DNA from: Candidatus Saganbacteria bacterium
GTDB taxonomy: Bacteria > Margulisbacteria > WOR-1 > JAPLLA01
DNA: 64,000 bases
Assembly (NCBI GenBank): GCA_026387795.1
Contig: JAPLLA010000019.1
Location: 2,972 to 66,971 of the forward strand
Direction of reading: 5' to 3'
A model generated the notes under the pieces. The model had not been told where the DNA came from. It made no database searches and worked only from the letters and a program-made list of their open reading frames with translations. The position numbers were made by a program, and so were the translations under genes. Of this stretch, positions 5,290-44,184 are shown piece by piece (the stretch's first letter is position 1; every line of letters starts with the position of its first letter).

Positions 5290-7644
5290 ATGAAGTACGG
5301 ATTTTTTGACAAGAAAAATAGGGAATATGTAATTACCAGACCGGATACGCCGCTCCCCTGGATCAATTATTTGGGCAGTGAAGAATACTGCGCGCTTTTT
5401 TCAAACACCGCAGGCGGATACAGTTTTTGCGTAGACCCTCTTTACCGCAGACTGCTTCGCTACCGTTACAACAATGTCCCTATGGACCGCGGCGGCAGAT
5501 ACATATATATAAGGGACAACAAGACCAAGGAATATTGGTCCCCAACCTGGCAGCCGGTTTTAAAAGACCTCAAGCATTTTAAATACGAGTGCCGTCATGG
5601 TACAGGGTATTCCGTGATTTCTTCAGAATATGACGGAGTACAAACCAAAGGGACCTATTTTGTCCCGCTAGGGGAGAACTGCGAAGTGTGGATGCTGCAA
5701 GTTAAAAATGTTTCTAAAGCAGCCAAGAAAAAAAACTTAACGGTTTTTTCTTTTGTGGAATTCTGCTTGTGGGACGCATTAAACGACATGACAGATTTTC
5801 AATATAACTTGAACATCGGCCAAACCGAATATACAGATGGGGTTATTTGGCACCTGACCCGCTACAGAGTAGAAAAATACCAATTTGCCTATTTAGCCTG
5901 CACCAACCAGGATGTAACCAGTTTTGATTCAGACCGGGACAGCTTTCTTGGGCCTTACGGTTCTTTTGAAAATCCCAAAGCAGTAAAAGACGGCAAATGC
6001 TCAAACTCTATTGCGTGCGGTTGGTCTCCGGTTGGTTCGCACTGTGTCCCTATTACACTGAACGATAAAAACGAAGAAACCGTTATTTTTGTACTTGGCT
6101 ATAACACAGACAAAAAAGACGTAAAAAGGATCTTAAAGAAATTCGATTCCAAAACAAAGGTGGAAAAAGAGATCCAAAAGCTCAAAGAGTATTGGGAAGA
6201 GAGCCTCAACAAGTTCACAGTTGAAACCGAAGACGAAGAAATGAACACAATGTTAAACACCTGGAACCAGTACCAATGCCGTACCACTTTTAACTGGTCC
6301 CGTTCCGCTTCTTACTACGAAGCGGGCATCGGCCGCGGCATGGGTTTTAGGGATTCAAACCAAGATACCTTGGGCTTTGTGCATCAGATCCCGCAAAAGG
6401 TAAAAGAGAGAATTATTGATATCGCTTCTACTCAATTTGAGAACGGAAGCGCAAACCACCAGTATCAGCCGCTTACCAAAAAAGGTGCTGGCGGAGGATT
6501 TTCCGACGACCATCTTTGGCTAATTATTTCTGTGGCAGGATACATTAAAGAAACTGGAGACTTTGCTTTCCTGTCTCAAAAAGTCCCGTTTGAAAACGGC
6601 AAAAAAGCGCCGATGTACGAACATTTGGAAAAAGCGATTGAATATACCATGACTAACCTGGGTCCGCACGGATTGCCCAAAATGTTTAAAGCAGATTGGA
6701 ACGATTGCTTAAACCTTCCTGGGGCCAAAGGCCAGTCAGAATCCGTGATGGTTGCCCAGCAGTTGGTTTACGTAGCCCGCGAAATGGAAAAACTGGCAGT
6801 ATACGCAGGTAAGTCGGAAGATGCGGAAAAATATGCCAAGTATGCTCAGCAAATGACCAAGAGCATCAATTCCGTAGCTTGGGATGGTTCTTGGTATTTA
6901 CGCGCTTTTACAGACGATAAGGAAGCAGTGGGATCTTCCAAATGCAAAGAAGGAAAGATTTACCTGGAAACACAGCCTTGGGCGGTTATGAGCGGAAGCG
7001 CGCCGGAAGATCGGGCAAAAAAGTGCATGGATTCTGTTTACAAGCATTTGTTCAGCAAGCACGGGATCATGATCCTGCAGCCTTCTTACGAAGAGTATCC
7101 TCCTGAGCTTGGTACGATCGGTTTTTACCCTCCGGGGCTTAAAGAAAACGGAGCGATCTTTTGTCATCCAAACCCATGGGCCATGGTTGCAGAATGCATG
7201 TTGGGCAGGGGAGACCGCGCGTTTGAATATTACAAAGCGATCCTTCCGGCAGCGCGCAACGACATAGCAGAGATCCATCGTACAGAGCCATATGTCTACT
7301 GCCAAATGATTGCGGGCCGTGACCACGCTAAGTTTGGAGAAGGCAAAAACTCTTGGTTGACTGGTTCTGCTTGCTGGAACTTTGTAGCAGCATCACAATG
7401 GATCCTTGGCATCCGCCCAGATTACGAAGGACTGATGGTTGATCCTTGCATTCCAAAAGGATGGGACGGTTTTGAAGTAAAGAGAGTATTTAGAGGCGCA
7501 ACCTATTACATTACTGTAAGAAACCCCAAACATGTTTCAAAAGGGATCAAAGAAGTTACAGTAGATGGTAAAAAGGTTGAATCCAATGTTGTCCCTGTCT
7601 TTTCAGATGGCGGCGAGCATTTTGTGGAAGTCCTCATGGGGTAG
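5290..7644 (+). CDS. glycoside hydrolase family 94 glycosyl phosphorylase (cellobiose/chitobiose phosphorylase-like)
   Basis: 784 aa; N-terminal ...ITRPDTPLPWINYLG... and overall length typical of GH94 disaccharide phosphorylases. Confidence 0.8.
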   Translation: MKYGFFDKKNREYVITRPDTPLPWINYLGSEEYCALFSNTAGGYSFCVDPLYRRLLRYRYNNVPMDRGGRYIYIRDNKTKEYWSPTWQPVLKDLKHFKYECRHGTGYSVISSEYDGVQTKGTYFVPLGENCEVWMLQVKNVSKAAKKKNLTVFSFVEFCLWDALNDMTDFQYNLNIGQTEYTDGVIWHLTRYRVEKYQFAYLACTNQDVTSFDSDRDSFLGPYGSFENPKAVKDGKCSNSIACGWSPVGSHCVPITLNDKNEETVIFVLGYNTDKKDVKRILKKFDSKTKVEKEIQKLKEYWEESLNKFTVETEDEEMNTMLNTWNQYQCRTTFNWSRSASYYEAGIGRGMGFRDSNQDTLGFVHQIPQKVKERIIDIASTQFENGSANHQYQPLTKKGAGGGFSDDHLWLIISVAGYIKETGDFAFLSQKVPFENGKKAPMYEHLEKAIEYTMTNLGPHGLPKMFKADWNDCLNLPGAKGQSESVMVAQQLVYVAREMEKLAVYAGKSEDAEKYAKYAQQMTKSINSVAWDGSWYLRAFTDDKEAVGSSKCKEGKIYLETQPWAVMSGSAPEDRAKKCMDSVYKHLFSKHGIMILQPSYEEYPPELGTIGFYPPGLKENGAIFCHPNPWAMVAECMLGRGDRAFEYYKAILPAARNDIAEIHRTEPYVYCQMIAGRDHAKFGEGKNSWLTGSACWNFVAASQWILGIRPDYEGLMVDPCIPKGWDGFEVKRVFRGATYYITVRNPKHVSKGIKEVTVDGKKVESNVVPVFSDGGEHFVEVLMG

Positions 7645-7664: not shown

Positions 7665-7718
7665 CCGGGAATCCCGGTGTATTGACAAGATACCGGGAAT
7701 CCCGGTATAATTGCAAAT
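7665..7718 (+). promoter_or_regulatory. consensus sigma70-type promoter TTGACA-18-TATAAT with two copies of a CCGGGAATCCCGG near-palindrome; predicted leaderless start at the ATG of the 7719 gene
   Basis: TTGACA at 7682-7687 and TATAAT at 7706-7711; near-palindromes at 7665-7677 and 7693-7705, the second inside the spacer; ATG at 7719 with no SD. Confidence 0.6.
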
Positions 7719-8681
7719 ATGAAGATCCACTTGCCAAATAGCGCTTTTTTGGGTAATATTGACCCTTTTATTCGCGGGTTTGATCCTTTATCAGACAATG
7801 TTCTGGAAATTTCCGCCAATGATAAATGGATTTCAGTTCATCCAGTGGTTTTATCGATGATTGCCGCACTTGGCTTGACAATTGATGCCAAGAATATTTC
7901 TTGTGCTAAGTTTGAAGCAAAATCAAAACACTATCTTGCGCGCATGGGACTTTTTCAAATATTGGGAATTAGATCAGACTTTGATTTTGTGGAGCACGAA
8001 CCTGCCGGCCGCTTTATTCCTGTCACCCAGATAAAAACGTCAGGCGAGCTGACAAAATTCATCACCGAAATGATCCCTCTTTTACATCTTGAGCCGGAGC
8101 AGGCGAAAACGATCGGTTACATTGTAAGCGAATTAGCGCGAAATGTTATTGAGCATGCTGCTTCCGAAAAAGGGGCAGTATTGTGCGCCCAATATTATAA
8201 AAAAAGCAATTCAATCCGCGTTGGGATTGCTGATACTGGTGTTGGCATAAAAAAAACGATCAATCAATCCTATGCTGCGGCAACTGATCTGGAGGCTGTT
8301 AAACTTGCCCTGCAGCCGGGAATTACAGGAACAACAAGAAGAGAAGGGGGTACAGAGCAAAATGCCGGGGCAGGACTGTTTTTTATAAAATCCATTGCCA
8401 GCGTGAACCGGGACTTTTTTGTCATTTACAGCGGATCAGGATTTTATAAGCTGCTGAAAAAAACATCGCGAGTAAGACCGCAGCTAAATGCAAACCCGGA
8501 AAAAGACCGGCACTCGGAAAGCGATGAAATGCCTTTTTGGCATGGGACTATTGTGGGGATAGACATTTCCCTTAACCAGACCGAAGAATTTTCCCTGTTG
8601 CTGGATGCCATAAGAAAAACCTATAGTACTGCTCTGAAAGAAAGAAGAAAATCACGCTATAGGAAGCCAAGGTTTATATGA
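7719..8681 (+). CDS. GHKL-type ATP-binding protein (HATPase_c-like, RsbW/anti-sigma-kinase-like) with unknown N-terminal domain
   Basis: 320 aa; N-box-like SELARNVIEHA, G1-like GIADTGVGI and G2-like GAGLFFIKS motifs. Confidence 0.6.
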   Translation: MKIHLPNSAFLGNIDPFIRGFDPLSDNVLEISANDKWISVHPVVLSMIAALGLTIDAKNISCAKFEAKSKHYLARMGLFQILGIRSDFDFVEHEPAGRFIPVTQIKTSGELTKFITEMIPLLHLEPEQAKTIGYIVSELARNVIEHAASEKGAVLCAQYYKKSNSIRVGIADTGVGIKKTINQSYAAATDLEAVKLALQPGITGTTRREGGTEQNAGAGLFFIKSIASVNRDFFVIYSGSGFYKLLKKTSRVRPQLNANPEKDRHSESDEMPFWHGTIVGIDISLNQTEEFSLLLDAIRKTYSTALKERRKSRYRKPRFI

Positions 8682-8962
8682 AGCAGATAAATATTTTTGA
8701 TAAAGCTGGATCGTTTGCGGAAAATAAAGACATTGCTAAAGCGGTCCGGATAGAAGAGATCCTTCCTGCGTTAAACAAGCAGGAGGAAATTATCCTGGAT
8801 TTCAAAAACGTTGAGGCTGCTACGCAGTCTTTTATCCACGCGCTTCTCAGCGATGTTATAAGGAAATACGGCGGCGAGGTTTTGGACAAAATATCTTTTA
8901 GATCGTGTAATGATACCGTAAAAAAGATAATAGGCATTGTGGTTGACTACATGCAGGAGTAA
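8678..8962 (+). CDS. small STAS-like (DUF4325-like) protein, putative partner of the upstream ATPase
   Basis: 94 aa; start overlaps the stop of the upstream gene (ATGA); size and pattern of STAS-like antagonist proteins. Confidence 0.5.
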   Translation: MKQINIFDKAGSFAENKDIAKAVRIEEILPALNKQEEIILDFKNVEAATQSFIHALLSDVIRKYGGEVLDKISFRSCNDTVKKIIGIVVDYMQE

Positions 8963-8968
8963 AGCACT

Positions 8969-8999
8969 GGTGTGCCATTTTGGCACACCTCTATTTTCC
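8969..8999 (+). terminator. intrinsic terminator-like hairpin after the STAS-like gene
   Basis: GGTGTGCCA-TTTT-TGGCACACC stem-loop followed by a T-rich tract. Confidence 0.45.
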
Positions 9000-9041
9000 G
9001 ACGGCGGCGAGCATTTTGTGGAAGTGGCGATGGGGTAAGAC
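9000..9041. repeat. displaced ~42-bp copy of the 3' end of the GH94 gene; direct repeat partner of 7606-7647
   Basis: GACGGCGGCGAGCATTTTGTGGAAGTGGCGATGGGGTAAGA versus GATGGCGGCGAGCATTTTGTGGAAGTCCTCATGGGGTAGAGA at 7606-7647; both encode ...SDGGEHFVEV.MG*. Confidence 0.65.
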
Positions 9042-9169
9042 AAGGAGCCAGATATTTTTTTATTAGCTTCCTCCGGTTCCATTGCTATTGCAGTCAGCTT
9101 TTATTTGTTCCATTTTTCTGCCTCACGAGGCTAATTTTGTTAATAGGTTCAAAAATCTTTTCAGATTAG

Positions 9170-9427
9170 TTAGGAGGCTCCTCCACTACCATCCGAGCAC
9201 TCTCCTGTGGCACCTGTTCCTGGAGCACAAAGCTCTGTTGAGATAACATCTCCGCCATCGCCACAGCCGAATGCTGCCGAAGGGCCCGTATTACACGAGT
9301 TGTTTGCTATTCCCCCATTGGCAACACATCCGCCAGCAGCATTTGAACCCGCAGGGCAAGCATCTCCGTATGTCTTTCGGGAAGCTAAACTTAGTAGGCC
9401 TGGGGCTTGATATTTTATCTTTTCCAT
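9170..9427 (-). CDS. Cys/Gly/Ala-rich small protein (85 aa) ending ...GSGGAS
   Basis: ATG at 9427 preceded by GGAGGA SD; sequence MEKIKYQAPGLLSLASRKTYGD followed by a low-complexity C/G/S/T/A-rich region with 7 Cys; immediately downstream of the JAMM gene on the same strand. Confidence 0.45.
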   Translation of the reverse strand: MEKIKYQAPGLLSLASRKTYGDACPAGSNAAGGCVANGGIANNSCNTGPSAAFGCGDGGDVISTELCAPGTGATGECSDGSGGAS

Positions 9428-9474
9428 TTTATTCCTCCGCAGGTTGATTTTAGTAAAGCATACACTATGGAATA

Positions 9475-9484
9475 GGGGGGGGGG
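9475..9484. repeat. G10 (C10 on the coding strand) homopolymer tract in the JAMM/small-protein intergenic gap
   Basis: direct read: aataGGGGGGGGGGcaagg. Confidence 0.85.
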
Positions 9485-9499
9485 CAAGGAGAAAAACCG

Positions 9500-10075
9500 C
9501 TAAGCCTTAGTGCTAAAAGTGGATGAATCCCAATTTACAGGAATATCTTTTTTGTAAGTCAGCTTGCGGTTTAAGTAGTCAGAGAGCATCTGCTTAAGCT
9601 CTGCCATTTCTTTTTCCGGCAGGTTATCGCTCATCTTTGGCTTTCCAGTGGCAATATCAACTACCGTAAACCCTTTATCGCTTATTACTCTAATCGCTTC
9701 GGGAACAGCGGTCTTTTTTACTACCTGGTAAGCCGCGAATTCTGGATTGTACTGGTCGCGTAATCCCACAATAAATAAATAGCGAAAATTGTGGGCCAAA
9801 TCCTGCTCCGATGGATAAGCTATACCTTTAGGATGAGTATGGTAAACTCCTAAAAATTCCATCCCGTGCTTTTGTAAAAAGAGGTGGCCGCGCTCAAAAT
9901 CTTCGCCAACCAAGCCGTATTTTTTATTTGGGTCAAGGAATTCTTTGTTGGCAATGGGAAGTACGGCCATAATAGAGTTCCCTTGCCCGCCCAAGATTCC
10001 GCCAGTCTCCTGCGGATACGCTTCCATGGCTTGTTGTAAAATTATTCTATATTGATGCTCTGTAATCTGTAACAT
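9500..10075 (-). CDS. JAMM/MPN+ family metalloprotease (Mov34-like)
   Basis: 191 aa; ...GVYHTHPKGIAYPSEQD matches the JAMM motif H-x-H-x(7)-S-x(2)-D; upstream Glu also present. Confidence 0.7.
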   Translation of the reverse strand: MLQITEHQYRIILQQAMEAYPQETGGILGGQGNSIMAVLPIANKEFLDPNKKYGLVGEDFERGHLFLQKHGMEFLGVYHTHPKGIAYPSEQDLAHNFRYLFIVGLRDQYNPEFAAYQVVKKTAVPEAIRVISDKGFTVVDIATGKPKMSDNLPEKEMAELKQMLSDYLNRKLTYKKDIPVNWDSSTFSTKA

Positions 10076-10082
10076 AATTTAG

Positions 10083-10209
10083 TTGTTGTGGGGGTGCGTT
10101 GTGGGTTGTGGGGCGAGTTGTGAGTAGTGAGAATGGGGATAATTTAAATAATTCCCCACAACCCACCCTCACAACACGCCTCACAGCTCATAACCCACAA
10201 CTCACAACC
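10083..10209. repeat. ~127-bp imperfect GT-rich/CA-rich palindrome (possible long stem-loop, possible G-quadruplex-forming on the transcribed strand)
   Basis: left arm of GTTGTGGG-type repeats, central GGGGATAATTTAAATAATTCCCC, right arm of CACAACCC-type repeats; fills the gap between the YqeY-like stop and the JAMM start. Confidence 0.5.
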
Positions 10210-10778: not shown

Positions 10779-11246
10779 TTGAAGTGTCCTTTTTGTGGCA
10801 AAAAAAACGATCGAGTACTGGAATCGCGAGTTGCGGAAGAAGGGTTGGCAGTCAGAAGGCGCCGCGAATGCGTTGGGTGTAAGGAACGCTTTACTTCCTA
10901 CGAGCGGATAGAAGAAAAGCCCCTCTGGGTGATCAAGCGCGACGGCCGCAAGGAGACTTATTCCAGGGAAAAACTGTTAAGCGGGGTGGTGAGGGCGTGC
11001 CACAAGCGATCAGTAGCGCTTAGTGCGGTAGAAAGATTGGTTTCCGAAGTAGAAAAACTTTTACATAAAGAAAAAGGGCGGGAGGTTAAATCTTCAAAAC
11101 TTGGCGAACTCACCCTAAAAAAGCTTAGAAAACTGGATTCCGTAGCCTACGTGAGATTTGCCTCTGTTTACCATCAATTTAAAAACCCCGAAGAGTTTTT
11201 TATTGAAATGAAGAAATTATTATCCGGGGGGCGTCGTGGCAGATAG
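10779..11246 (+). CDS. nrdR: transcriptional repressor NrdR
   Basis: 155 aa; N-terminal zinc ribbon MKCPFCG...CxxC followed by an ATP-cone domain; TTG start. Confidence 0.9.
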   Translation: MKCPFCGKKNDRVLESRVAEEGLAVRRRRECVGCKERFTSYERIEEKPLWVIKRDGRKETYSREKLLSGVVRACHKRSVALSAVERLVSEVEKLLHKEKGREVKSSKLGELTLKKLRKLDSVAYVRFASVYHQFKNPEEFFIEMKKLLSGGRRGR

Positions 11247-13280
11247 AGAAAAGAAAGGAAGTGCGGCAATGAATCCAATGGCAGTAGCGGACGAAATAAA
11301 AAAAGAAGATTCAACGGACTTGGCTTTGTTTGTAAGAACCTCGGGAGACGATATTATTGCCTGGAACAGGCAGAAGATTGTGGAAGCCTTGATCCGGGAG
11401 ACCGGGCTGGCCAGAGAAATAGCGGACCAGATTGGATGTGAAGTGGAAGACGAAATGAAGAAGATGAACCTTAGGTTTGTTACTTCCCCGCTTATCCGCG
11501 AGCTGGTAGATGTAAAACTTTTGGAACACGGTGAAGAAGAAGCGCGGCGCAAGCATACCAGACTTGGCACCCCGCTTTATGATGTGCAGCAGCTCATTGT
11601 CAACGCCAACAAAGAAAATGCCAATGTCCCACATGGTCCCGAAGCCACCAACCTGACCCTTGCTGAAAACATTAAAAAAGAATTTGCCCTACTTTCGGTT
11701 TTTGCCCAGGATGTTGCTGATGCACACATGCGTGGCGACCTGCACCTGCATGATTTGGGTTTTATAGACCGCCCTTATTGCAGCGGACAATCCGTGGAAT
11801 ATGTAAAAAAATTCGGGCTCGACCTTCCAAACGCGCTTTCAATAGCAAAACCGGCAAAACACGCAGAAGTTTTGCTTGCACAAATGGTTAAATTCTCTGC
11901 TGCACTCCAGGGAGTGTTTGCCGGTGCAATTGGCTGGGATGCGGTAAACCTCTTTTTTGCTCCATTTTTAGAAGGGATGTCAGACGCAGAGATTAAGCAG
12001 ATTGCACAAATGATGATCTATGAATACAGCCAGCAAGCAGTGGCCAGGGGAGGGCAGGCGATTTTTTCAGACATCAACATATACTGGGAAATTCCCAAAC
12101 ACTTTGAAAATGTTCCGGCAATCGGCAAGGGGGGACAGTATACGGGCAAGGTTTACGGAGACTACTTAAAAGACGCACAGAGGTTTGCTTGGGCATTATT
12201 TGACGTATATATGGAAGGAGACGGCTCCGGTCGTCCCTTCTTTTTCCCAAAACCGCTGGTGCACATGACTGAAAAGTTTTTTAAAACCGAAGGCCACCAA
12301 GAATTCTTATTGCATATTTCCAAAGTCGCCACGGAAATGGGGAACACTTATTTTGTGTTTGACCGGGGAGAAACCGCCAAGATTTCCGAATGCTGCCGTC
12401 TCTCTTTTAAGCTGGAGCAGTCGGATCTGGATGATGCCAAAGAACCGTGGAGGATGCGCTATTCCGCTCTCCAAAACGTAACCATCAACCTCCCCAGGAC
12501 AGCATTTAAAGCAGAGGGAAGCGATGAAAAACTCTTTGTGCTGATAGGAGAAATGCTGGAACTGGCAGCTACTGCACACGTACAAAAGAAAAATTTTATT
12601 GAAGCGCTCTTGGCCAAAGGTACAAGCGGACCGCTTTCCATGCTAGCCATGAAGCGTGATGGCCAGCCGTATCTTAGGATGTTTAGAGTAAGTTATTTAA
12701 TGGGCATTTTGGGTCTCAATGAACTGGTGCAAGCACATATTGGCAAAGAGATGCATGAAAGCGACGCAGCTCTAAAACTGGGGCTCAAAGTAAATTCTTT
12801 TATGAAAATAAAATGCGACGAACTTTCCAGAAAGCACGGAATCCATTTTGTGTTGGAGCAAACCCCGGCAGAATCCACTGCCTATCGTTTTGCAAAACTT
12901 GATATTGCGCACTACCCTGAACAAGCCAAAAGAGTGGTAAAAGGGAATTTTGCTACAGGTGAAATTTATTACACTAATTCCACTTATTTCAATGAGAAAG
13001 CAAGCCGAGCCCTGCAAGCATTGCCAATTTTGTCATCAAGACCTTCCGTGAAACACAAAACACGCAAATTGCTTTTTCCCCGGAATTTACTTCCTGCAAC
13101 GACTGCGGGAAGATTGTAAGAGGACTAAAAGATCGCTGCCCTTATTGCAGTTCCGAGCAAATCGAAGGGATTACACGTATTACCGGGTATTTTTCAAAGA
13201 TTAAAGGATGGAATCGCGGTAAGACAGGGGAACTCAAGGAACGTTTCCGCGTCGGCACATTTTTTGAGGCATCATGTTAA
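11236..13280 (+). pseudogene. nrdD: anaerobic ribonucleoside-triphosphate reductase paralog (copy 1) with an internal ~95-nt out-of-frame deletion
   Basis: collinear with the intact copy at 13274-15367 up to ...YYTNSTYFN; then frame A reads a non-homologous tail ending at 13119 while frame +2 continues ESKPSPASIANFVIKTF...CNDCGKIVRGLKDRCPYC...RITGYFSKIKGWNRGK (Zn ribbon and glycyl-radical motif) to 13280; the ~32 aa VGNPMNLIDRVKQEGLFHPLIDAGALTHIWLG present in copy 2 are missing. Confidence 0.55.
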
Positions 13281-15694: not shown

Positions 15695-16576
15695 CTAATC
15701 TAAGCAGAGTTTATAACGGGTAGACTTATTTTGCCCTTCTTTTGTGACTAATTTATTTTTTATCAACGGAACAATAATCTGATTTATTCTTGAACGTGTA
15801 AGACCCATGGTTTTTTGTAATTCTTTTACTCCTATTAGGGGTCGATCTTTTAAGGTTTTTATTAGTTCTTCTTGTCTAGGAGAGAGAGTTAGCGTGCATT
15901 TGGAGGAGACCTGTAATTCTTCAATCCGTTTTTTTGTTTTTCCTAAGGTTGCAACAATTCCTTCGGCAACATATTCAACCCAATGGGTTAAATTGTTGTC
16001 CAATTCGCGGGTTTGCTGGATTTTTTCATAATAGTATTTGCGGTTAGAAGCGAAAAAATCATCTAGGCTAAGAATGTGATTTGTATCGATTCCCCATTGA
16101 TATATAATCCAGGCCCCAACCGCCCTGGCTACCCGGCCATTCCCGTCCGAAAAAGGGTGGATAGAAACAAAACGATGGTGAAAGATTGCTCCTACAATTA
16201 CACCATGCAAGATTTTTGTTTTTGAAGAGTTTAGCCATTCAAGGAGTTCGTGCATTAGTTTTGGGGTTTGCTTGGGAGTGGGAGGGGTGTAAATACGGAT
16301 TCTATTTTCATTGACCACATAGTTTTGCTTGGTTTTGTAGCTCCCAGTTTTTTGGTTTGGTAGTAATTCCTGCATAAGCATTTTGTGCAGGAGAAAAAGG
16401 GCGGATTCTGTTATTTGTGACTGGGAATGTTTTTCTATCCAGCACAAGGCTTTTAGGTAGTTGGTGATCTCTTTTTCGTAGTGCAGGGGGATTTTTAATT
16501 GTTCCCCTTGTTCCAGGGCTTTGACTTGTGCCAGGGATAAAGGGTTCCCTTCTATTGAAGTAGAAGAGTGGGCCAA
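15695..16576 (-). CDS. fic: Fic family protein (AMPylase-type fold) with C-terminal winged-helix domain
   Basis: 293 aa; canonical Fic motif HPFSDGNGRVAR; C-terminal HTH-like segment. Confidence 0.85.
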   Translation of the reverse strand: MAHSSTSIEGNPLSLAQVKALEQGEQLKIPLHYEKEITNYLKALCWIEKHSQSQITESALFLLHKMLMQELLPNQKTGSYKTKQNYVVNENRIRIYTPPTPKQTPKLMHELLEWLNSSKTKILHGVIVGAIFHHRFVSIHPFSDGNGRVARAVGAWIIYQWGIDTNHILSLDDFFASNRKYYYEKIQQTRELDNNLTHWVEYVAEGIVATLGKTKKRIEELQVSSKCTLTLSPRQEELIKTLKDRPLIGVKELQKTMGLTRSRINQIIVPLIKNKLVTKEGQNKSTRYKLCLD

Positions 16577-20125: not shown

Positions 20126-20815
20126 TTAATCTTCCCTGGAGCTGCGTAGCGCAATCAAGCGGATCAGGTTAAGGACTGCCATGGCAGTAGCTGCAACGTA
20201 AGTAAGGGCAGCGGCATTAAGTACTTGTTTTGCCATAGGAAGCTCTTCTTGGTTCAAGTATCGCCCATCTCCAAGCAAAGCAAGGGCGCGCTTGCTGGCA
20301 TTGAATTCAACTGGCAGCGTGATGAGCTGGAAAGCAACTGCCAGGGAAAAAGCAATGATCCCCAAATCCATTAATGGCCCATAGCTCATGAGTAGCCCTA
20401 TAAAAAACATAGGCATGGCTAGGTTAGATCCAAAGCTGGCTACAGGAACAAAATTGTTTCTAATTTTTAAGGGTGCGTAGTTTTTGGCATCTTGCAAAGC
20501 ATGGCCTACTTCGTGTGCAACCACACCCAAAGCAGCAACAGAGTGATCAGAATAGTTTGTTTCTGAAAGCCGCAGTTTTTTGTCCCTGGGGTCATAATGG
20601 TCGGAAAGGTCTCCAGGAATGGACTCAACTGCTACTTCTCCTATCCCGCCTTTGGACAAAAGTTCTCTTGCCAGCTGTGCCCCGGTTATACCCGAAGAAG
20701 CTTGTACCTGGGAATACTTTGCGTAGGTCCCTTTCACCTTAAACTGGGCATAGATTGCCAAGATAATCGCCGGAATTAATAATAAAAAAGTTGGATCATA
20801 AAACATTTTAAACAC
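20126..20815 (-). CDS. YugP-like neutral zinc metallopeptidase (membrane-associated)
   Basis: 229 aa; HEVGHALQ zinc-binding motif; hydrophobic N- and C-terminal segments typical of the family. Confidence 0.8.
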   Translation of the reverse strand: MFKMFYDPTFLLLIPAIILAIYAQFKVKGTYAKYSQVQASSGITGAQLARELLSKGGIGEVAVESIPGDLSDHYDPRDKKLRLSETNYSDHSVAALGVVAHEVGHALQDAKNYAPLKIRNNFVPVASFGSNLAMPMFFIGLLMSYGPLMDLGIIAFSLAVAFQLITLPVEFNASKRALALLGDGRYLNQEELPMAKQVLNAAALTYVAATAMAVLNLIRLIALRSSRED

Positions 20816-21515
20816 CCCTCAACGTTATATTTGGAACATATACTTTACCAGCTTCGGCAAAAACTTTCAATTCGTCGGCTTCATAGGGCTTAATGGTCTC
20901 AAAGCTTTTATCCAGGGTTTCTTTGTTTACAAATTGCTGCAGGACCACTCTTTTTGCTTTGGGAATGGCTTTTAGCATTTCAATAATAGATTCTTTATTA
21001 TGCAGGGTTGGGACTACGGTGAGCCTAAATTCATGGTCGACTTCAGCATTTATAATCACATCGATGCTTTCTTTGATTTTAGCAGGATCGGCTTTGACTC
21101 CGCTTGAGAGATCATATCGTTCGTCCAGCGGACCCTTGTAGTCCATGGCAACATAATCTACCAGCTTAGAATTGATCAATTCTAAAAGCATTTTCGGATT
21201 GGTGCCGTTAGTATCAAGCTTTACCAGTAATCCTAATTTTTTAAATCTTTTACAGAGCTCTGGCAGCCAAGTATTCAAGGTAGGTTCCCCTCCCGTGATT
21301 ACAATCCCGTCTATAAAATCTTTTCTTTCTTGTATAAAAGCCTCGATATCCTCAATTTTGATTTTCTTCATCTTTTCCGGTCGGGTAATTAGAATGCTGT
21401 TGTGGCAAAAAGGGCAGCGGAAGTTGCAGCCTGGGATAAAAAGCACAGAAACAATCTTGCCGTCCCAGTCCAAAAAAGAGGTCTCTAAAAATCCGCGGAT
21501 ATCAAAATCATTCAT
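20808..21515 (-). CDS. radical SAM activating enzyme, NrdG-like (anaerobic RNR activase family)
   Basis: 235 aa; ...LFIPGCNFRCPFCHN CxxxCxxC radical SAM cluster motif typical of glycyl-radical activases. Confidence 0.6.
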   Translation of the reverse strand: MNDFDIRGFLETSFLDWDGKIVSVLFIPGCNFRCPFCHNSILITRPEKMKKIKIEDIEAFIQERKDFIDGIVITGGEPTLNTWLPELCKRFKKLGLLVKLDTNGTNPKMLLELINSKLVDYVAMDYKGPLDERYDLSSGVKADPAKIKESIDVIINAEVDHEFRLTVVPTLHNKESIIEMLKAIPKAKRVVLQQFVNKETLDKSFETIKPYEADELKVFAEAGKVYVPNITLRGV

Positions 21516-32730: not shown

Positions 32731-33934
32731 TTAGAGGTAATTTCGCGGGTCCGCGATCTTTCCTTCGATTACAGAGGCAGCTACAGTGGCAGGAGATGCG
32801 AGGTATATAAACGCATTCGGATTTCCCATTCTACCTTTAAAGTTGCGGTTTGCAGTAGAAATAGCATTTTCTCCGTCAGCAGGTACTCCTTGATGAGTGC
32901 CGACACATGGGCCACATCCAGGCGCAACCACTACGGCATTTGCTTCCACAAAAGTTTCGATCAAACCTTCTTTTAAAGCATCCTTAAAAATCTGCCTGGA
33001 AGCAGGAGCCACTATCAATCTGGTTTCTTTGTTTACTTTTTTACCCTTTAGAATTCCTGCAGCAATCCGTAAGTCTTCCATTCTTCCGTTAGTGCAAGTT
33101 CCAATAAATCCTTCTGCACGGCTTTGCAATTTGCGGTTCGATTTTGGAAACATCAAACTCTTTTACAGAAGCATATTTTGCGTCCGCATCAGGCGATTGA
33201 GGGCTCATTTTTTTCTTAGAATGTTTTTTAACCCAATCTAAGATTTTCTCGTCTGCTTCCATAAGCCCAACCTTTGCCCCTGCTTCTATAGCCATGTTTG
33301 AAATAGTAAAACGCGCTTCAACCGATAGATCGGAAATTACCGGTCCACCAAACTCAATAGCCTGATAAGTTGCTCCGTCTGCGGTAATTTTACCGATGGT
33401 GTATAGGATGAGGTCTTTTGAAAAGACTCCCTTGGGAAGCTTGCCTGTGTAGATAATTTTCATGGTTTCCGGTACTTTGAACCAGAGTTTTCCGGAGATA
33501 ATTCCTGCAGTAAGGTCAGTGGACCCTACGCCGGTTGAAAAAACATTGATGGCACCGTAGGTGCAAGTGTGTGAATCTGCCCCGATTACTAAATCACCGG
33601 GAACAACGTGTCCTTGTTCAGGAACTAACTGATGGCAAACCCCGCAGCCTACGTCATAGAGTACAACTCCTGTTTCTGCCACAAAACTACGGATCTTTTG
33701 GTGGATGGCAGAAACCCCGATGTTTGGGCTGGGAGCACTGTGGTCAATACAGATCGCTACCTTGGATGCATCAAAAGGTTTTTGGCCGTGCATTTTGCGA
33801 AAAGAATCAATTGCAACTCCAGAGGTCCCGTCTTGGCCCATTAAAAAATCTAGGCTGGCAATAACGATGTCCCCGGCATAAGCATCTGTGCCACTATGAT
33901 TTGATAATATTTTTTCGGAGATTGTCTTCCCCAT
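32731..33934 (-). pseudogene. leuC: 3-isopropylmalate dehydratase large subunit, disrupted (two overlapping ORFs)
   Basis: N-terminal ORF 33089-33934 ends ...[18 protein letters not shown]; the C-terminal ORF in another frame continues [11 protein letters not shown]...APGCGPCVG; ~15-20 residues expected between AKP and IGSCTNG are missing. Confidence 0.6.
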
Positions 33935-37959: not shown

Positions 37960-38281
37960 TCCAGAAAAAGAAGCACAAAGGATAGTGGCGGAGTACTTAT
38001 CTGGGCTAGGGTGGGCCAGGCAGTGGCAGCAAGTGATAGAAAGAGAACCGCGGTCTTTTGGAAGGGACGAAAGAGAAGACAAGCTGCGCAAAGCAGAAAA
38101 GATGATGGAAGAAACCGAAGACCGCTTTAGCCAGCATGTGGAAAAATACCTCCACGATTCTTCGCCGGAAGCCAAACAAGTGTTGGAAAACATTCTAAAA
38201 AAACTTTCGCCTCGCCGCGACTTGGGGTTTTTCTGCCAGAGGATTTTGAGCCACATTAAAAACAAGCTGGGGATTTATTAG
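37937..38281 (+). CDS. hypothetical charged small protein
   Basis: 114-aa ORF; overlaps the 3' end of the 37199 gene; no motifs. Confidence 0.3.
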   Translation: MALPADSNPEKEAQRIVAEYLSGLGWARQWQQVIEREPRSFGRDEREDKLRKAEKMMEETEDRFSQHVEKYLHDSSPEAKQVLENILKKLSPRRDLGFFCQRILSHIKNKLGIY

Positions 38282-41200
38282 GCTTGGCTTTGTACTTCCC
38301 TTTGTAATTCAGACAGATTAAACGATAAATGCGGACGCCAGATAAAATTAAATCTTTCTACTGCTACGAAATAGCTTATCTCTTTATCTCCAATCTTGCC
38401 GGTAAACCTGCGATAGGTATCGGACATAGACTTAAAATTATAGATATGGGTATTGCGGTCAAATAATTCCGGATGGTCTGCTGCAGTCCAGCCAGAAGCA
38501 ACGCTTTCTACGGCGGAGCCAAGATACCTGGCATTGGGGTTTGCATCATCGTATTGGCGATTGGGATCTGCCAGATGAGTCATTGTGCCGCTGTCAAAAG
38601 GATCAAACATTACCCATTCGTGTGCACCGGATAGCATGCCTGGAAAGTGAGCGGATTTTTCAGCAAAACCCATGTAAACAGCGCTTCTGATCCCTGCTTC
38701 CTGGTAAGCCATTTGCAGTACCGGTGAACGATGCCTGCAACATCCGCCTTTTTTCATGAAAAAAGCCTGAGTTAAAAATTGCCCAGTTTGGCCTTTTTCC
38801 CTGGATTGCTTATCTGAATATGAAATGTGGAGCTGCTCGAAAATGTTTTTGGCTAAGCCGACTACGTGGTCAGGGGCATTTAATAATCCCGCGGCAAGGC
38901 GGGAGATTGCTTCTTTTTTTGCGGCTATCACAAATTCAAAAACAACAGAAGGATCTCCTGCGCTGTCTTTTTCCCCTTTGTTTATCCCTGCAACTTCACC
39001 GTGTTCCAGGGGTTTTCCCAATTCTGCATTGAGTAGCGCAGGAGAACAGTCATGTTGGCGCAGGAATGGGTTGTCAGCCACTTCCCCATATTTGTCCGGA
39101 GTGATTTCTGCTGCAAGCGTTATTTTGTGCCCATTTGGAAACAAAGCTGCCTCGATTTTTGTTCTGGTTAACATGGTTCTGCGCACTGCCTGGTCAAATT
39201 GTTTTTCTGCTTGAGGGGTAAGCCCGCCGACTTTTGCTTTCCAACCAAGGAGTCCTCCGGTTTTAGTTTTTGGCAGAGAAGCATATAAATCAGCCAATAC
39301 CTGATTTTCCGCGCGGATGCATGCAAGCGGGTCCCTAAGGTAAAGTTCTACATAAGTGTAAAAATCACTTGCAGTGGCAACGCGCATTACTCCGCCGGAA
39401 GCTTTGGGCATGGCCAGGCCACTGACCTCATCCGGTGTAAACTTTCCAAAAAGCTCCCCCAGTAAAACTGCTTTTACACTTTTTACCGGACGGGGCGCAA
39501 GAGCTGCTGCTTGTGCAACTACTCCCAGCAGGCCGTGTAACTTGCCCAGATATTCTTTTTTGTAGTTAGCTACTCTGGCAATACCCTTCCCACTGGTTAC
39601 ATATGTTTTTATCATTTCTCTCATTTTTAGCAAGGTATCTGGTTCTTTTGTAAGCAGGCCAATGAACTCCGTAAGATTTTCTGCAGTTAAAGAGACCGCA
39701 GCCAAAGTTGGGTGAGAGAAAGAAACTTTCCCGCCGGGTCTGTTGACTTTATGCGGGAAGAGAGAGCTAAACGCAGTGTTAAATGCTTCGGGATCACTAT
39801 GCCACTGCAGGTATCCAAGAATAATCCGTCTTAAAACTTCATTTTCAGGTGTATTTAATGCTGCCACAATTTGGGTTTGGGCAGCAGCAACTTTTGCTTC
39901 TATGGCAGCCCCGATTTTGGCGATGGCTGCTGTGCGGTGTTCAATTTTTTCTCGAATTTGTGCATTTGCCGGATCTGCCTGGGCTGCTGTTTCCCAAAGT
40001 GCACAATACTGCCGTAAGGCGGATAAAGCGGTAAAAAGATTTTCCAGGGAGTGCATTCTTGCCAGTTCTGCGCCGCTGGTTGAGATTGCTATGCCTTGAT
40101 TAAAAATAGCCCTAACTACATCCTTTTTGTCTCCTTGCTGTGCTTGCAAATCCGCTTCTGCTTCTTGGGCTGTTTTAAGAGCGCTTTTTTGCGGCGGCGT
40201 AGGAGGTTCCGGGACAGAAACTCTGGTGTGTTTATAAGCAAAAACAGAGACATTGTCCCCATGTGCACCACCGTTTGCTCTCATTGTTTCTACAGAGGCC
40301 TGGTAAATGTTTGCAGCTAAGTCAACTAAAGAAGATGTGGGGTCCAGCAGCTCAACAAAAGAAGCAAACTTTTCTTCTCCGGGCTTTTTTGAGGCAGCGT
40401 TAAAAGGAAGGTTGTCCCGCGGACCGTCAGTCATTCCCAAGACAATATCCCCTTCTTCCAATTCGCAGGTAAAAACATGCGGAGTACTGTTGGTTTGGCC
40501 CAAGGCTCTCAAAATTATGTGATTATTAGGAAACCCCCTAAAAATTTCATGATATTCTCTTAGCTCTTCTCCGCCTATGGGTTGGGTAGGGTAATCTCCT
40601 TTATCCATTTTATATCCTTCAACGGCTAAGTTGTCGTCGAACGACACTTGATGCAAGGTCCCGTTTTGTTTAAGGACATAAACAGGGGCGTCACCTATGT
40701 TAACTACAGTTAAAGTATTTCCGCGGACCTCGTAAGCAGCAACAGTACTTCCCATTCCTTTTAAGGTTTGTTTTTCCGGCCTTCCGTCTAAAGCTGCAGC
40801 AGCAAGATCTTTTTCTACTTCTTCCAATATTTTTGCTTGAGCCAGTGCAATACATTCTTGCAAAGTTTTACCTTCGCCAAGAGCTTTGGAAAAAACCTCT
40901 GCTGCTATGCGGCTGGCAACTTCTCCCCCTGCGTGTCCTCCCATGCCGTCAAAACAAACAAAAACCTTCCTTTGGGCATCTTCATAATACAAAATAGCAT
41001 CTTCGTTTTTTGCCCTTGCTCCAATGCTGGTGAGGCCGTGTATGTTTTTCCCTGGGAAAGTGATGACCCCTTCTGCTCCGCCCGCGTAAAATTTTACAGT
41101 TTGTACTGGTGCTGCTTCTTTCTGTGCAATGACTCGGTCCAAGTTTTCCAGTGCTTTGGTTTTGGCGCCCGCTATGTCTACCATAGACTGTAAAAGTGCG

Positions 41201-44184
41201 GCGTCTTCCGGAGAGGTAAAAATCCGTCTTCCTTTTTCTAATGCTTTGGTCCAAATTCCAAGTTCTTTGTCAACTAGAGAGCGGGTGATCCTTAATTGGT
41301 CCAATGTTTCCTTGTTTAAAGCCTCTAAATTTCCGCTTCCAGCAGCAGCAATGCTTACAGCTGCAGCTGTATTCATCCCTACGGTTCCACCTGGTCCTGT
41401 AACCAGGTAAATGGGATCTATTTGTTCCAGAGCTTCTTTATGTAAGCGGCGGGCCAGGGCTTTTTTGGTTAGGCTTAAAGCAGTTCTGGCATGTGCTACT
41501 TCTGCTTCAAAAGGTTTTTCATGTGGGAACCTAGCATTCGCTCTTTCCCAAATAGGAACACTTCTGGCAAAACCATCCAAGACCCCTTCCAAGGCAGCCA
41601 CATCCCAGCCAGTAGCCAAAGCAGCAACCCGGTCTGTTTCCGATGCATGCTGTCTAATGATATTTCTTATATGTCCGTCAATTTGGCGATGATGGGTAGT
41701 GGACCAGGCACGTTCTTGATCTCCTTCTGCGCTTGTTCTGGCAGCGGCAACATCATCTTTTCTTAATTTAATCGCTTGATTAAGGGCCTCCAAACCTTCC
41801 CGTTTTCTTTTTGCCAGTTCCCCAAAAGGGTGGTCTGGGGAAAAAGCAGCATCCGCACCCTGCCATAGCCGCAATGCTTCTCCCATGCGATGGCTGGTTT
41901 CTTCTAGGATTGCTAAACTGGTATCATTGGTTGTTCTGGGGCCGTTTTCCATGCGGTCTCTGATCCGGGTCCAAGCAACACCTGCGTCGGTATTTGGAAA
42001 AAGATCTGCTTCGGCTTTTTCGGTTTTTCTTTTTGCATTAGCAAATACAGCTTCCTTTTCTTCTATAGCAGTCCCTAATATTATTCGAGCGGTTTTAAGG
42101 TTTTCGGTTTTTTTGGAAGCTTCACTGCTTTCCGGGAATTCACTGCTAAGCGGTTCCCAAACCACCAAGATATCCCCTAAAATTTTCTGAGTAGCCTGAA
42201 GCAGTGCTAAAGAAGTGTGGTCCAAGAATTCAGGCTGTTCCAGTGCCACTCCATAGGTGTCTTCTACTTCCTCGGGAGCATAACCAGTTGCCATTTTCAA
42301 TATATCATTTTCTGCTTTCCTGGCCAGGCTCATTTGCCTTTCCATGTGTACAACTGCAACTCGTTGTTCCAGGATCCTTAGTTCAGCCAACTGTGCGTTG
42401 ATGGGGATAGTTAAGTCCGGCTTTTCAATAGACAATCTTTCCCAAAACGCAATTCTGCTCCTTAGCCAAGAGAGGGTTTGAGCTACTGTTCTGTAACCTT
42501 GTTCTTCCTCGATCCCGGCTGCCCTAAAAGAAGGCGGGAGGGGAGCAGTATTAGCAGGATCCCTTTTCCATTCCAAATAAGTCTTTATATCTGCATGCCT
42601 GGCCAGAAATTCCGTTTCTTGTGCCTTGTGGAATGCAACCGGGTCATTGGTCCTCCCGATTTTTAAGTCAATTATTTTTTGAAGTTCTACAAGGGCCCTG
42701 GCATAACCCTCAATTTTATCTTGTGCAAAGGCTGGGTCGTTTAAACTGGTTCTGGCAGTTTCCCATGCAGCTTTTAGTGTTTGGGCTTTTTCATAAACTG
42801 CTTGGAGTTCGGGAAGAGAATAGGCTGCTAATTCATCGGGATTTTCCCTTGCGCTGGTCATTACAGTGCTAAAATGCACTGGCGGTTCTGCCCCCAATAA
42901 TTCCCCGATAGTTCTACTTTCTTCCGCTACTAATTTGGCAAAGGTCAAAACTTTTTTATCACTCTTAGCTGTTGCCAAGGCGTGTTGTAAAACAGTCATG
43001 CGAAGGGAACTTTTAGGATGATTAACTTCTGCGGCAAAGCTTTGCCAGCTTGCAATGTGCTCTCCCAGAAAAGTTAAAACTGATTCTATAGCAGCCAAGC
43101 TATCTTCGACTGCTGCCAGGTCCCTAAAACTTTCCGGTAAATCACGTGTTGCTCCGGGTTGCGTTCTTGCGGCCAAATATTCCTGGGCTTTGCCAGAAAG
43201 AGCTGCAATTACTTGGGCTTCTTCTCTAAGCTTTGCTTCATGTAAGCTTTGTTTTAGTTCCCCAATTACGCGTCCAAGGGTTTCCAAGTCCGCGGTGTAT
43301 TGAGCGTGAAGCTCTGTCCCGTCTTCCAAAAGAGGGAGTAGTTCTTCGCGGACCAATCGTTCTGCTTCAACCAAGGTTTTTAGGTCTGCCAAAGTGGTAC
43401 CTGCATACTGCCTGGAAACAACCATAATTGCAGCAGGGGAGATGCCCAGCAGGTCTTGTGTAGCAGTCCCCAAAGTTTCTCTTAAAGCATCAATCCTTGC
43501 TCCTTCTTCTTGCACTTCCCTTCCCAGACGCGCGGAAGATTCTCTTAACTGCCGTGCTTGTTCTTCTAACCCCGGAAGATTTGCTTCTCTTTCTGCTTCT
43601 ACCAGTGCTCTACGCATGTCTTCTACTGGTCCCATAAGTACAGCTTTGAAAGCTGCCAAGGAATCCCTGCATCCTTTCAAAGCAGCAGTTAGGTCTCCTG
43701 CTTGTTCTTCTCCTTCTCTTTTTGCTCCTTCTAACTCATCCTTACCTGCTTCTTCAAGACCAGGAGTTGTAAGCGCGCCTAAAACAACAGCAAGCGCATT
43801 ATTTATACCGCTTAAGGCAGCATTTAACTCAGTAATTTGAGCACTTAAATCTTTTGCTTCTGCATTGGCGTCAAATTCTTGCAATACCCCTGATTCTGCA
43901 TTGGCAATGGCGCTTCTCTGAGCTGCCAGTTCCCCGCTTTTTTCTTCTATTGTTCTTGCTGTTTCTTTCAAAGAAGCGGTGGCTTGATCTGCCAAGGGGC
44001 GTTTTTGTTCCAATGAACCTGTGAGGGTATCGATTTCTTCCCGCGCAGAGATTACCTTAAGCCAAGCAGCTTGAAAAGCAGAGACCTCTGCTGGTAATGT
44101 GGGTCTTATTGTAGGTTTTTGATGAGAACGAAACAGAACGAGATCGCCTGTTCTTATTAGTCCTCTTACACCGGGACTCTGCAT
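38278..44184 (-). CDS. giant multidomain protein (1968 aa): shared N-terminal paralog module, PP2C-type phosphatase domain, C-terminal transglutaminase-like Cys-His-Asp domain
   Basis: the first ~600 aa are collinear with the 585-aa and 723-aa neighbours; FVCFDGMGGHAGGE, NIGDAPVYV and LGMTDGPRDN are PP2C motifs (DNA ~40190-40950); C-terminal GGCCRHRS...GAHEWVMFDPFD fits a transglutaminase-like Cys/His/Asp core (DNA ~38480-38760). Confidence 0.7.
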   Translation of the reverse strand: MQSPGVRGLIRTGDLVLFRSHQKPTIRPTLPAEVSAFQAAWLKVISAREEIDTLTGSLEQKRPLADQATASLKETARTIEEKSGELAAQRSAIANAESGVLQEFDANAEAKDLSAQITELNAALSGINNALAVVLGALTTPGLEEAGKDELEGAKREGEEQAGDLTAALKGCRDSLAAFKAVLMGPVEDMRRALVEAEREANLPGLEEQARQLRESSARLGREVQEEGARIDALRETLGTATQDLLGISPAAIMVVSRQYAGTTLADLKTLVEAERLVREELLPLLEDGTELHAQYTADLETLGRVIGELKQSLHEAKLREEAQVIAALSGKAQEYLAARTQPGATRDLPESFRDLAAVEDSLAAIESVLTFLGEHIASWQSFAAEVNHPKSSLRMTVLQHALATAKSDKKVLTFAKLVAEESRTIGELLGAEPPVHFSTVMTSARENPDELAAYSLPELQAVYEKAQTLKAAWETARTSLNDPAFAQDKIEGYARALVELQKIIDLKIGRTNDPVAFHKAQETEFLARHADIKTYLEWKRDPANTAPLPPSFRAAGIEEEQGYRTVAQTLSWLRSRIAFWERLSIEKPDLTIPINAQLAELRILEQRVAVVHMERQMSLARKAENDILKMATGYAPEEVEDTYGVALEQPEFLDHTSLALLQATQKILGDILVVWEPLSSEFPESSEASKKTENLKTARIILGTAIEEKEAVFANAKRKTEKAEADLFPNTDAGVAWTRIRDRMENGPRTTNDTSLAILEETSHRMGEALRLWQGADAAFSPDHPFGELAKRKREGLEALNQAIKLRKDDVAAARTSAEGDQERAWSTTHHRQIDGHIRNIIRQHASETDRVAALATGWDVAALEGVLDGFARSVPIWERANARFPHEKPFEAEVAHARTALSLTKKALARRLHKEALEQIDPIYLVTGPGGTVGMNTAAAVSIAAAGSGNLEALNKETLDQLRITRSLVDKELGIWTKALEKGRRIFTSPEDAALLQSMVDIAGAKTKALENLDRVIAQKEAAPVQTVKFYAGGAEGVITFPGKNIHGLTSIGARAKNEDAILYYEDAQRKVFVCFDGMGGHAGGEVASRIAAEVFSKALGEGKTLQECIALAQAKILEEVEKDLAAAALDGRPEKQTLKGMGSTVAAYEVRGNTLTVVNIGDAPVYVLKQNGTLHQVSFDDNLAVEGYKMDKGDYPTQPIGGEELREYHEIFRGFPNNHIILRALGQTNSTPHVFTCELEEGDIVLGMTDGPRDNLPFNAASKKPGEEKFASFVELLDPTSSLVDLAANIYQASVETMRANGGAHGDNVSVFAYKHTRVSVPEPPTPPQKSALKTAQEAEADLQAQQGDKKDVVRAIFNQGIAISTSGAELARMHSLENLFTALSALRQYCALWETAAQADPANAQIREKIEHRTAAIAKIGAAIEAKVAAAQTQIVAALNTPENEVLRRIILGYLQWHSDPEAFNTAFSSLFPHKVNRPGGKVSFSHPTLAAVSLTAENLTEFIGLLTKEPDTLLKMREMIKTYVTSGKGIARVANYKKEYLGKLHGLLGVVAQAAALAPRPVKSVKAVLLGELFGKFTPDEVSGLAMPKASGGVMRVATASDFYTYVELYLRDPLACIRAENQVLADLYASLPKTKTGGLLGWKAKVGGLTPQAEKQFDQAVRRTMLTRTKIEAALFPNGHKITLAAEITPDKYGEVADNPFLRQHDCSPALLNAELGKPLEHGEVAGINKGEKDSAGDPSVVFEFVIAAKKEAISRLAAGLLNAPDHVVGLAKNIFEQLHISYSDKQSREKGQTGQFLTQAFFMKKGGCCRHRSPVLQMAYQEAGIRSAVYMGFAEKSAHFPGMLSGAHEWVMFDPFDSGTMTHLADPNRQYDDANPNARYLGSAVESVASGWTAADHPELFDRNTHIYNFKSMSDTYRRFTGKIGDKEISYFVAVERFNFIWRPHLSFNLSELQREVQSQA

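Follow-up and report, generated by a model that had tools for sequence, protein, structure and literature searches.

What does a JAMM/MPN+ metalloprotease gene do beside a small open reading frame (ORF) of 85 residues that ends in DGSGGAS? The question is raised by a stretch of 64,000 nucleotides (hereafter the 64-kb window) of a genome of Candidatus Saganbacteria, a little-studied sister lineage of Cyanobacteria. The first-pass annotation of this window had proposed that the JAMM enzyme trims the small protein after its C-terminal Gly-Gly, as in ubiquitin-like systems, and had alternatively seen in it a leader-plus-core precursor resembling those of peptides that ribosomes synthesize and that are modified after translation (RiPPs). 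Both genes, their shared minus-strand orientation, their coordinates and the sequence of the small ORF were confirmed, and our results point to the second proposal. The 85-residue ORF is probably a stand-alone (orphan) RiPP-family precursor of the type found in SynChlorMet-like (SCM) cassettes, and its adjacency to the JAMM gene would be incidental.

A family of decapeptide-repeat precursors

The peptide ORF is, to judge from its sequence, more than a chance reading frame, because it shows the base composition of a coding frame and is the sole significant match, among the six-frame ORFs of the window, to an independent profile of cassette-linked peptides (see below). Its GC content is lower at the third codon position (GC3, 0.35) than at the first (GC1, 0.57) and the second (GC2, 0.65), in a genome of 44.6% GC, a pattern that fits a genuine Gly/Ala/Cys-rich coding frame. 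A ribosome-binding site, GGAGGA, located at 9433-9438, 5 nt ahead of the ATG, would serve its expression. The peptide is identical to the NCBI entry "hypothetical protein NT099_02430", which is encoded on a contig of 67.7 kb, and has no Pfam match. It contains six cysteines, at positions 24, 34, 45, 55, 67 and 77, rather than the seven previously counted. The same 2.2 kb is present in three other assemblies (L002-L004) with 100% DNA identity, so that there is no substitution pattern on which selection on the peptide could be tested.

The first relatives of the peptide to be recovered are distant. An exhaustive phmmer search, in which 1.8 billion representatives were scanned, recovered three of them (P0099, P0100 and P0101; E 1e-4 to 5e-4) with the same leader and the same Cys periodicity, and a profile search brought in a further one, P0102. 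A word-indexed search recovered only the peptide itself, and metagenome scans with the alignment of the window peptide and P0099, or with P0100, gave no match. P0100 is the second Saganbacteria member of the family and is encoded between prs and the homoserine dehydrogenase gene.

The genomic context of P0101 and P0102 is telling. P0101 follows an ATP-binding cassette (ABC) ATPase gene and, directly, a PqqD gene. P0102 ends a complete cassette (L012), which encodes, in this order, two radical S-adenosylmethionine (SAM)/SPASM proteins, ScmC (PF27840), an ABC exporter, PqqD and the precursor. The best NCBIfam matches of this cassette are to the models that define the SynChlorMet system, namely ScmE (1e-64), ScmF (5.6e-94), ScmC and ScmD (1.2e-14). 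These models are TIGR04252 for the precursor ScmA, TIGR04249/PF27840 for ScmC, TIGR04248 for the PqqD-type ScmD and TIGR04250/04251 for ScmE/ScmF. As all the matches remain under the equivalog cutoffs, L012 is a divergent SynChlorMet-like cassette.

The ScmF-like protein of L012, used as the sole query of a low-sensitivity scan of GTDB species genomes, recovered similar cassettes from metagenome-assembled genomes (MAGs) of Planctomycetia, Omnitrophota, Desulfobacteraceae and Deltaproteobacteria. Six of these loci carry a precursor of the family (E 2e-16 to 2e-7). Its distance downstream from ScmF is about 2.8-3 kb in L016-L020 and about 1 kb in L022. In L017, the order is: a CxxCxxCC protein, ScmE-like, ScmF-like, ScmC-like, an ABC exporter, PqqD, the precursor, an S26 signal-peptidase-I-like protein and NTP_transf_5. 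The S26-like protein, encoded directly after the precursor (14235-14963 of L017, plus strand; E 2.3e-9), is a candidate leader peptidase of that cassette. An AxA-like motif stands just before the first Cys in many of the L016-L020 precursors and suggests a site of leader cleavage; the corresponding residues are G-D-A|C in the window peptide, and several relatives have A-Q-A|F or A-Q-A|C there.

The homology of the window peptide to these precursors was established with a hidden Markov model (HMM) for which only the eight peptides that are linked to a cassette and define the family (P0101, P0102, L016-L020 and L022) were used. In a search of 6,804 six-frame ORFs from the window and 15 loci, this HMM matches the window ORF with 37.7 bits (E 7e-10), over an alignment that spans HMM positions 3-85 and includes the leader as well as each of the six units. 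Among 1000 shuffles of the peptide that preserve its composition, the highest score is 9.3 bits, which shows that the match reflects homology and not low-complexity bias. The earlier suggestion of a leader-plus-core, RiPP-like precursor is thus supported by homology to peptides of cassettes with radical SAM/SPASM and PqqD proteins.

The window peptide also displays the architecture of the family. The leader, of 23-30 residues in the family and 23 in the window, bears the motif K-Y-x-x-P-x-[LIV], of which Y6 and P9 are invariant in a five-sequence family alignment, and in the window peptide it would end just before C24. The core consists of 6-7 units, each opening with Cys. The Cys spacing is 10, 11, 10, 12 and 10 in the window peptide; among the cassette-linked members, most have 10, 10, 10, 12-13, 10 and 10, and all seven that have seven Cys share a longer fourth unit of 12-13 residues. 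Gly occupies position +3 in 63 of the 71 units of 11 family members and in five of the six units of the window peptide; Ala is found at +6 in 41 of the 71. The last window unit, CSDGSGGAS, is a truncated repeat. A coherent precursor family is thereby delineated, with a KYxxPxL leader, 6-7 even CxxGxxA units and a length of 75-100 residues. It is tied to cassettes with two radical SAM enzymes in Planctomycetia, Omnitrophota and Deltaproteobacteria MAGs, and the ScmA model mostly misses it.

Table 1. Location of the peptide gene, the JAMM gene and their parts within the window.
Feature	Position	Strand	Remarks
JAMM/MPN+ metalloprotease gene, 191 aa	10075..9500	minus	intact; Pfam Prok-JAB
72-nt spacer, JAMM stop to peptide start	9428..9499	minus	holds C10 tract and GGAGGA; sequence read directly
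Putative precursor peptide ORF, 85 aa and stop	9427..9170	minus	ends DGSGGAS
Predicted leader, residues 1-23, MEKIKYQAPGLLSLASRKTYGDA	9359..9427	minus	family motif K-Y-x-x-P-x-L
Predicted core, residues 24-85	9173..9358	minus	six C-x-x-G-x-x-A-x-x-x units, about 10 residues each
TAA stop codon of the peptide gene	9170..9172	minus	

The JAMM gene and its pairing with the peptide

Judged by sequence and predicted fold, the JAMM protein is a bona fide MPN+ enzyme. It matches Pfam Prok-JAB (PF14464) with 54.4 bits (cutoff 25; E 1.3e-14), and the residues of its E...HxHx7Sx2D zinc site (E23, H79, H81, S89 and D92) are invariant across 25 aligned homologues. Its structure model, with a predicted local distance difference test (pLDDT) value of about 90 over residues 1-132, has DSY2949 (2kks) as its top Foldseek match (E 5.7e-11) and a target-normalised template modelling (TM) score of 0.82 to the desampylase PfJAMM1 (5lda). 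As its nearest neighbours in sequence and fold are the minimal prokaryotic JAMMs (2kks, 2kcq, PfJAMM1 (5lda, 5ld9) and AfJAMM), the protein does not belong to the RadC-like subgroup, for which the first-pass annotation had expected no peptide substrate. It remains under the cutoffs of the desampylase model NF041370 (31.4 bits; cutoff 130) and of the model NF050170 for Cap3 of the CBASS defence system (15.4 bits; cutoff 200), and PADLOC returns generic JAB matches only. Homologues number 97 (38-86% identity, most of 190-197 aa), and all those that carry a name come from Saganbacteria or Margulisbacteria.

Two further features of the JAMM gene were observed. Residues 135-191 form a C-terminal extension of about 60 residues, present in all 25 aligned Margulisbacteria/Saganbacteria homologues, in which Y174 and the extreme C-terminus F187-S-T189-x-A191-COOH are invariant; it is poorly modelled (pLDDT 42-74) and might be a tail that serves docking or autoinhibition. 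The interval between yqeY and the JAMM gene holds a 109-nt imperfect hairpin (10093-10201, minus strand), rich in GTGGGTTGTGGGG / CCCCACAACCCAC, with a Delta G of -67 kcal/mol and a z-score of -7.8 against shuffles, which occurs once in the window. It belongs to no real Rfam family and could be a terminator, a repetitive extragenic palindromic (REP)-like element or a structured leader. Reading the region as a non-coding RNA was also considered and rejected, as no Rfam family was found and this hairpin gave only spurious miRNA-precursor matches.

Several features of the locus could suggest that the JAMM enzyme cuts the peptide after Gly82-Gly83 and removes Ala-Ser, exposing a diglycine for adenylation, sulfur transfer or conjugation, as in QbsD/QbsE, CysO/Mec+ or SAMP/JAMM1. 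The two genes lie on the same strand, 72 nt apart, and a consensus scan of the spacer revealed neither a promoter-like nor a terminator-like site; the active site is intact, the fold is close to those of DSY2949 and PfJAMM1, and the peptide ends in GG-AS. The spacer also contains a homopolymer of ten C (minus strand, 9475-9484), which may be prone to slippage or sensitive to sequencing and which is unchanged in the three other assemblies.

The pairing is, however, not conserved. It was assessed at six other JAMM-orthologue loci, whose JAMM is 40-86% identical to that of the window, by a six-frame search with the peptide-family HMM and a motif regular expression. This search returned no member of the peptide family in any of the six, and no gene for a ubiquitin-like protein was called next to JAMM in any of them. 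In the closest locus, L001 (86% identity), the upstream yqeY/nrdR/nrdD genes are kept and a converging gene starts one base past the JAMM stop; downstream of JAMM the contig continues for 194 nt, in which no peptide is found. JAMM is flanked by a converging MFS gene in L005 and L006 and by a DUF3108 gene in L007; in L013, L014 and L015 it is divergent from the H+-pyrophosphatase gene, followed by unrelated genes. Reciprocally, JAMM is absent from all 12 ScmF-related loci, of which seven have a close relative of ScmF and six carry a precursor of the family, and from the surroundings of P0100, P0101 and P0102. The JAMM gene thus occurs independently of the peptide and of the cassettes, and the adjacency of the two genes in the window looks accidental. 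We regard JAMM as a stand-alone gene of the whole Margulisbacteria/Saganbacteria lineage and do not judge it to be part of the peptide system.

For the peptide itself, AlphaFold2, run with the family alignment, predicts no domain (mean pLDDT 38.5, predicted TM score 0.16), in agreement with the initial remark that the small protein is not obviously beta-grasp-like; this absence of a predicted fold agrees with a peptide substrate rather than with a beta-grasp protein. Gly-Gly is present four times in the 85 residues, not at the C-terminus alone, and the C-termini of the relatives differ: P0100, P0101 and P0102 end in GGPG, GGAK and GGPK, the other members in GSDTN, GFGF, FFVK, LGVI and TPNV, with last units such as CKAGGAK, CKAGGPK, CGGGGGPG, CQPGGIPGA, CKTGFGF, CKDGAFFVK, CKSGLGVI, CNDGFTPNV and CLAVGSDTN. 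The terminal GG-AS may well be a by-product of the Gly-rich repeat rather than a conserved processing site. A search for the E1-like, ThiF or MoeB partner that such a system would call for found none in the 64-kb window, nor any ThiS or MoaD. Diglycine exposure by JAMM thus appears exceedingly improbable, and the reading of the locus as a bacterial ubiquitin-like system, which lacks support, gives way to a concrete and testable precursor reading.

JAMM might alternatively have been recruited locally to remove the leader or the tail of the orphan RiPP precursor, in place of the S26-type peptidase of the cassettes. The adjacency and shared orientation of the genes would agree with such a role, as would the lack of an S26-like gene in the window and the conserved, unexplained C-terminal extension of the JAMM family. 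We consider it highly unlikely, given that the JAMM family occurs across Margulisbacteria regardless of the peptide, that the JAMM sequence is ordinary and 86% identical to a homologue at a peptide-less locus, and that P0100 lies between its two housekeeping neighbours without any JAMM. To our knowledge, no JAMM enzyme is known as a RiPP leader peptidase. A broader version, in which Saganbacteria would keep orphan (CxxGxxAxxx)n precursors without a cassette and the adjacent JAMM, instead of an S26 peptidase, would remove the leader or cut the tail after GG, is in our view very improbable; if true, it would represent the first JAMM-dependent step of RiPP maturation.

Maturation of the peptide and other features of the window

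If the window peptide is, as we favour, an orphan precursor of the SCM type, its maturation may follow the composition of its relatives' cassettes. A PqqD-type (ScmD-type) chaperone would bind the KYxxPxL leader, and two radical SAM/SPASM enzymes of ScmE/ScmF type would modify the six CxxGxxA units, which recur at regular spacing. Among Cys-rich SPASM substrates, thioether cross-links are the commonest chemistry (PMC10114670). The likeliest product would accordingly bear, in each unit, one thioether cross-link derived from its Cys, in the manner of sactipeptides and ranthipeptides. An S26-type peptidase could then cut the leader just before Cys24, after the AxA-like G-D-A, and an ABC transporter could export the product. 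Cross-linked once in every ten-residue unit, the latter would be unusual among polycyclic RiPPs for its regularity.

As no maturase gene is found in the window, maturation in this genome would require enzymes that are encoded at another locus and act in trans. The presence of two lone Saganbacteria members amid housekeeping genes raises the same question of maturation in trans.

Several results weigh against the orphan-precursor reading and explain why we hold it as probable only: (i) the 64-kb window contains no relative of SPASM radical SAM enzymes, PqqD, ScmC, S26 peptidases or peptide exporters, its sole radical SAM gene encoding a 235-aa activase-type protein (20808-21515); (ii) 16 kb around P0100 likewise contain no maturase relative, with generic ABC ATPase matches to the exporter query only; (iii) no Saganbacteria appear among the ScmF relatives of the GTDB scan, a single low-sensitivity query that neither shows nor excludes a cassette; (iv) the 85-residue peptide is known from one population only; (v) against the ScmA model TIGR04252 it scores 20.0 bits (E 6e-4), under the 35-bit cutoff, and the precursors of L016-L020 and L022 as well as P0102 give no match to this model; and finally (vi) the searchable literature yielded no description of the chemistry or product of an SCM-type cassette.

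Part of these results would also be expected if the peptide worked without radical-SAM maturation, as a thiol-rich metal-binding or redox peptide, or if it were a functionless, decaying relic of a lost cassette. No maturase is found near either Saganbacteria member, no Saganbacteria cassette was found by the single low-sensitivity ScmF query, L001 lacks the peptide within the 194 nt that separate JAMM from the contig end, and the neighbourhood is rearranged, with a GH94 end duplicated over 50 nt and a two-gene module that seems to be inserted (see below). Yet the ORF is intact and preceded by a strong ribosome-binding site, and at an identity to relatives of only 35-50% it retains the leader motif, the register of its Cys and, in five of six units, Gly+3, which speaks for constraint. 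With six Cys in 85 residues and no His, the peptide would moreover make a poor metallothionein, and a metallothionein-like reading, which the lack of a fold does not help either, was set aside as weak. An unmodified or relic peptide is thus a real alternative to maturation in trans, albeit an unlikely one.

The region downstream of the peptide gene appears to be rearranged, as a two-gene module seems to have been inserted between 50-nt repeats. These direct repeats (84% identity; 7594-7643 and 8988-9037, plus strand), the second of which is a remnant of the GH94 3' end (..FSDGGEHFVEVAMG and stop), frame a 1.39-kb segment whose genes (7719-8962) encode a HATPase_c_2 protein and a DUF4325 (STAS-like) protein. 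The segment 7719-8962 looks like an inserted module, and its two genes match the N-terminal module of the PADLOC model of DrmA (DISARM). Directly upstream of the HATPase_c_2 gene lies a tandem 24-nt repeat (7665-7688 and 7693-7716, plus strand), made of a palindrome, CCGGGAATCCCGG, followed by TTGACA-like or TATAAT-like hexamers, which could be an operator/promoter. Between this module and the peptide gene, a mini-ORF of 16 codons (9063-9113, minus strand; MEQIKADCNSNGTGGS and stop) has its own GAGG site, and its start matches that of the peptide gene at 16 of 18 nt. That it is a remnant of a second precursor copy is doubtful, since its alignment score of 48 does not exceed those of shuffled sequences (37 +/- 5, maximum 54).

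Other observations concern the window at large. Compared with the Logan contig L002, which is identical apart from this, the window lacks 94 nt at about 12993, so that the first of two tandem NrdD paralogues (11236-13119, plus strand) has 627 aa with an aberrant tail instead of 712 aa; this difference reflects either an assembly collapse or a real deletion. The gene for a LeuC-like large subunit of the aconitase family is broken into two ORFs that overlap (32731-33156 and 33089-33934, minus strand), owing to a frameshift or to an error of assembly. Defence genes and mobile genes occur here and there in an otherwise housekeeping region; they include a Fic protein (15695-16576, minus strand; PADLOC SoFic, E 3.6e-54), a DUF4143 ATPase (62948-63928, minus strand; PDC-S01, E 1.2e-98) and an IS200-like Y1 transposase (55281-55925, plus strand). 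Two giant ORFs are present on the minus strand, one of 1968 aa (38278-44184) with a PP2C/SpoIIE phosphatase as its sole recognised domain, and one of 1853 aa (48466-54027) with essentially no Pfam domain.

Comparison with known systems

The systems with which the locus was initially compared, QbsE/QbsD, CysO/Mec+, SAMP/HvJAMM1 and PfJAMM1, share with it a minimal MPN+ enzyme whose HxHx7Sx2D site is intact and an adjoining small ORF in which two residues follow a GG at the end. The window locus differs from them by the lack of a beta-grasp fold, of an E1 gene in the 64 kb and of a conserved linkage.

A lasso-peptide origin is another possibility suggested by the leader. Lasso precursors carry a YxxPxL leader motif that is bound by a PqqD-type RiPP recognition element, the window leader shows the same spacing (Y6-x-x-P9-x-L11), and the PqqD proteins of the relatives weakly match lasso PqqD models. 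The window core nevertheless has 62 residues, without any acidic residue at core positions 7-9 for a macrolactam, and neither a lasso cyclase nor a B2 protease is encoded in the window or in the relatives' cassettes. Reading the YxxPxL leader as that of a lasso peptide was rejected on these grounds (62-residue core, no acceptor Asp/Glu at positions 7-9, no cyclase).

A further comparison is with the precursors of SCIFF peptides, ranthipeptides and sactipeptides, whose Cys-rich cores are cross-linked by radical SAM/SPASM enzymes such as CteB, PapB and AlbA. Here too, a short leader precedes a core in which about six Cys stand at regular intervals, the relatives' enzymes are radical SAM/SPASM proteins, with weaker matches to the StsB, AlbA and PapB models, and their cassettes include a PqqD-type recognition element. 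The differences are that the window peptide has no CX3D/CX3E-type motif and is built on a CxxGxxAxxx unit of 10-residue periodicity, and that the relatives' cassettes carry two radical SAM enzymes together with ScmC. By analogy, the outline of the peptide would thus be that of a SCIFF, ranthipeptide or sactipeptide precursor, the ten-residue CxxGxxA unit being its distinct feature.

The SynChlorMet cassette, defined bioinformatically by TIGRFAMs/NCBIfam models and reportedly first described by Haft and Basu in 2011, offers the closest comparison. Residues 6-51 of the window peptide, that is the leader and the first three Cys units, align to positions 1-47 of the 49 of the ScmA model, and its relatives sit in cassettes whose genes all match Scm models best. 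Two relatives also match ScmA under the 35-bit cutoff, P0099 with 26.9 bits (E 4e-6) and P0101 with 17.5 bits (E 3.5e-3). The window core is in contrast about twice as long as that of ScmA, with six units (seven in most cassette-linked relatives), the Scm-type enzymes of the relatives stay under the equivalog cutoffs, and no cassette adjoins the peptide gene within the 64 kb. The window peptide is not an ScmA in the strict sense, on both its score and its cassette context. The decapeptide-repeat family to which it belongs would be best described, from the sequences at hand, as a longer-cored sister of ScmA.

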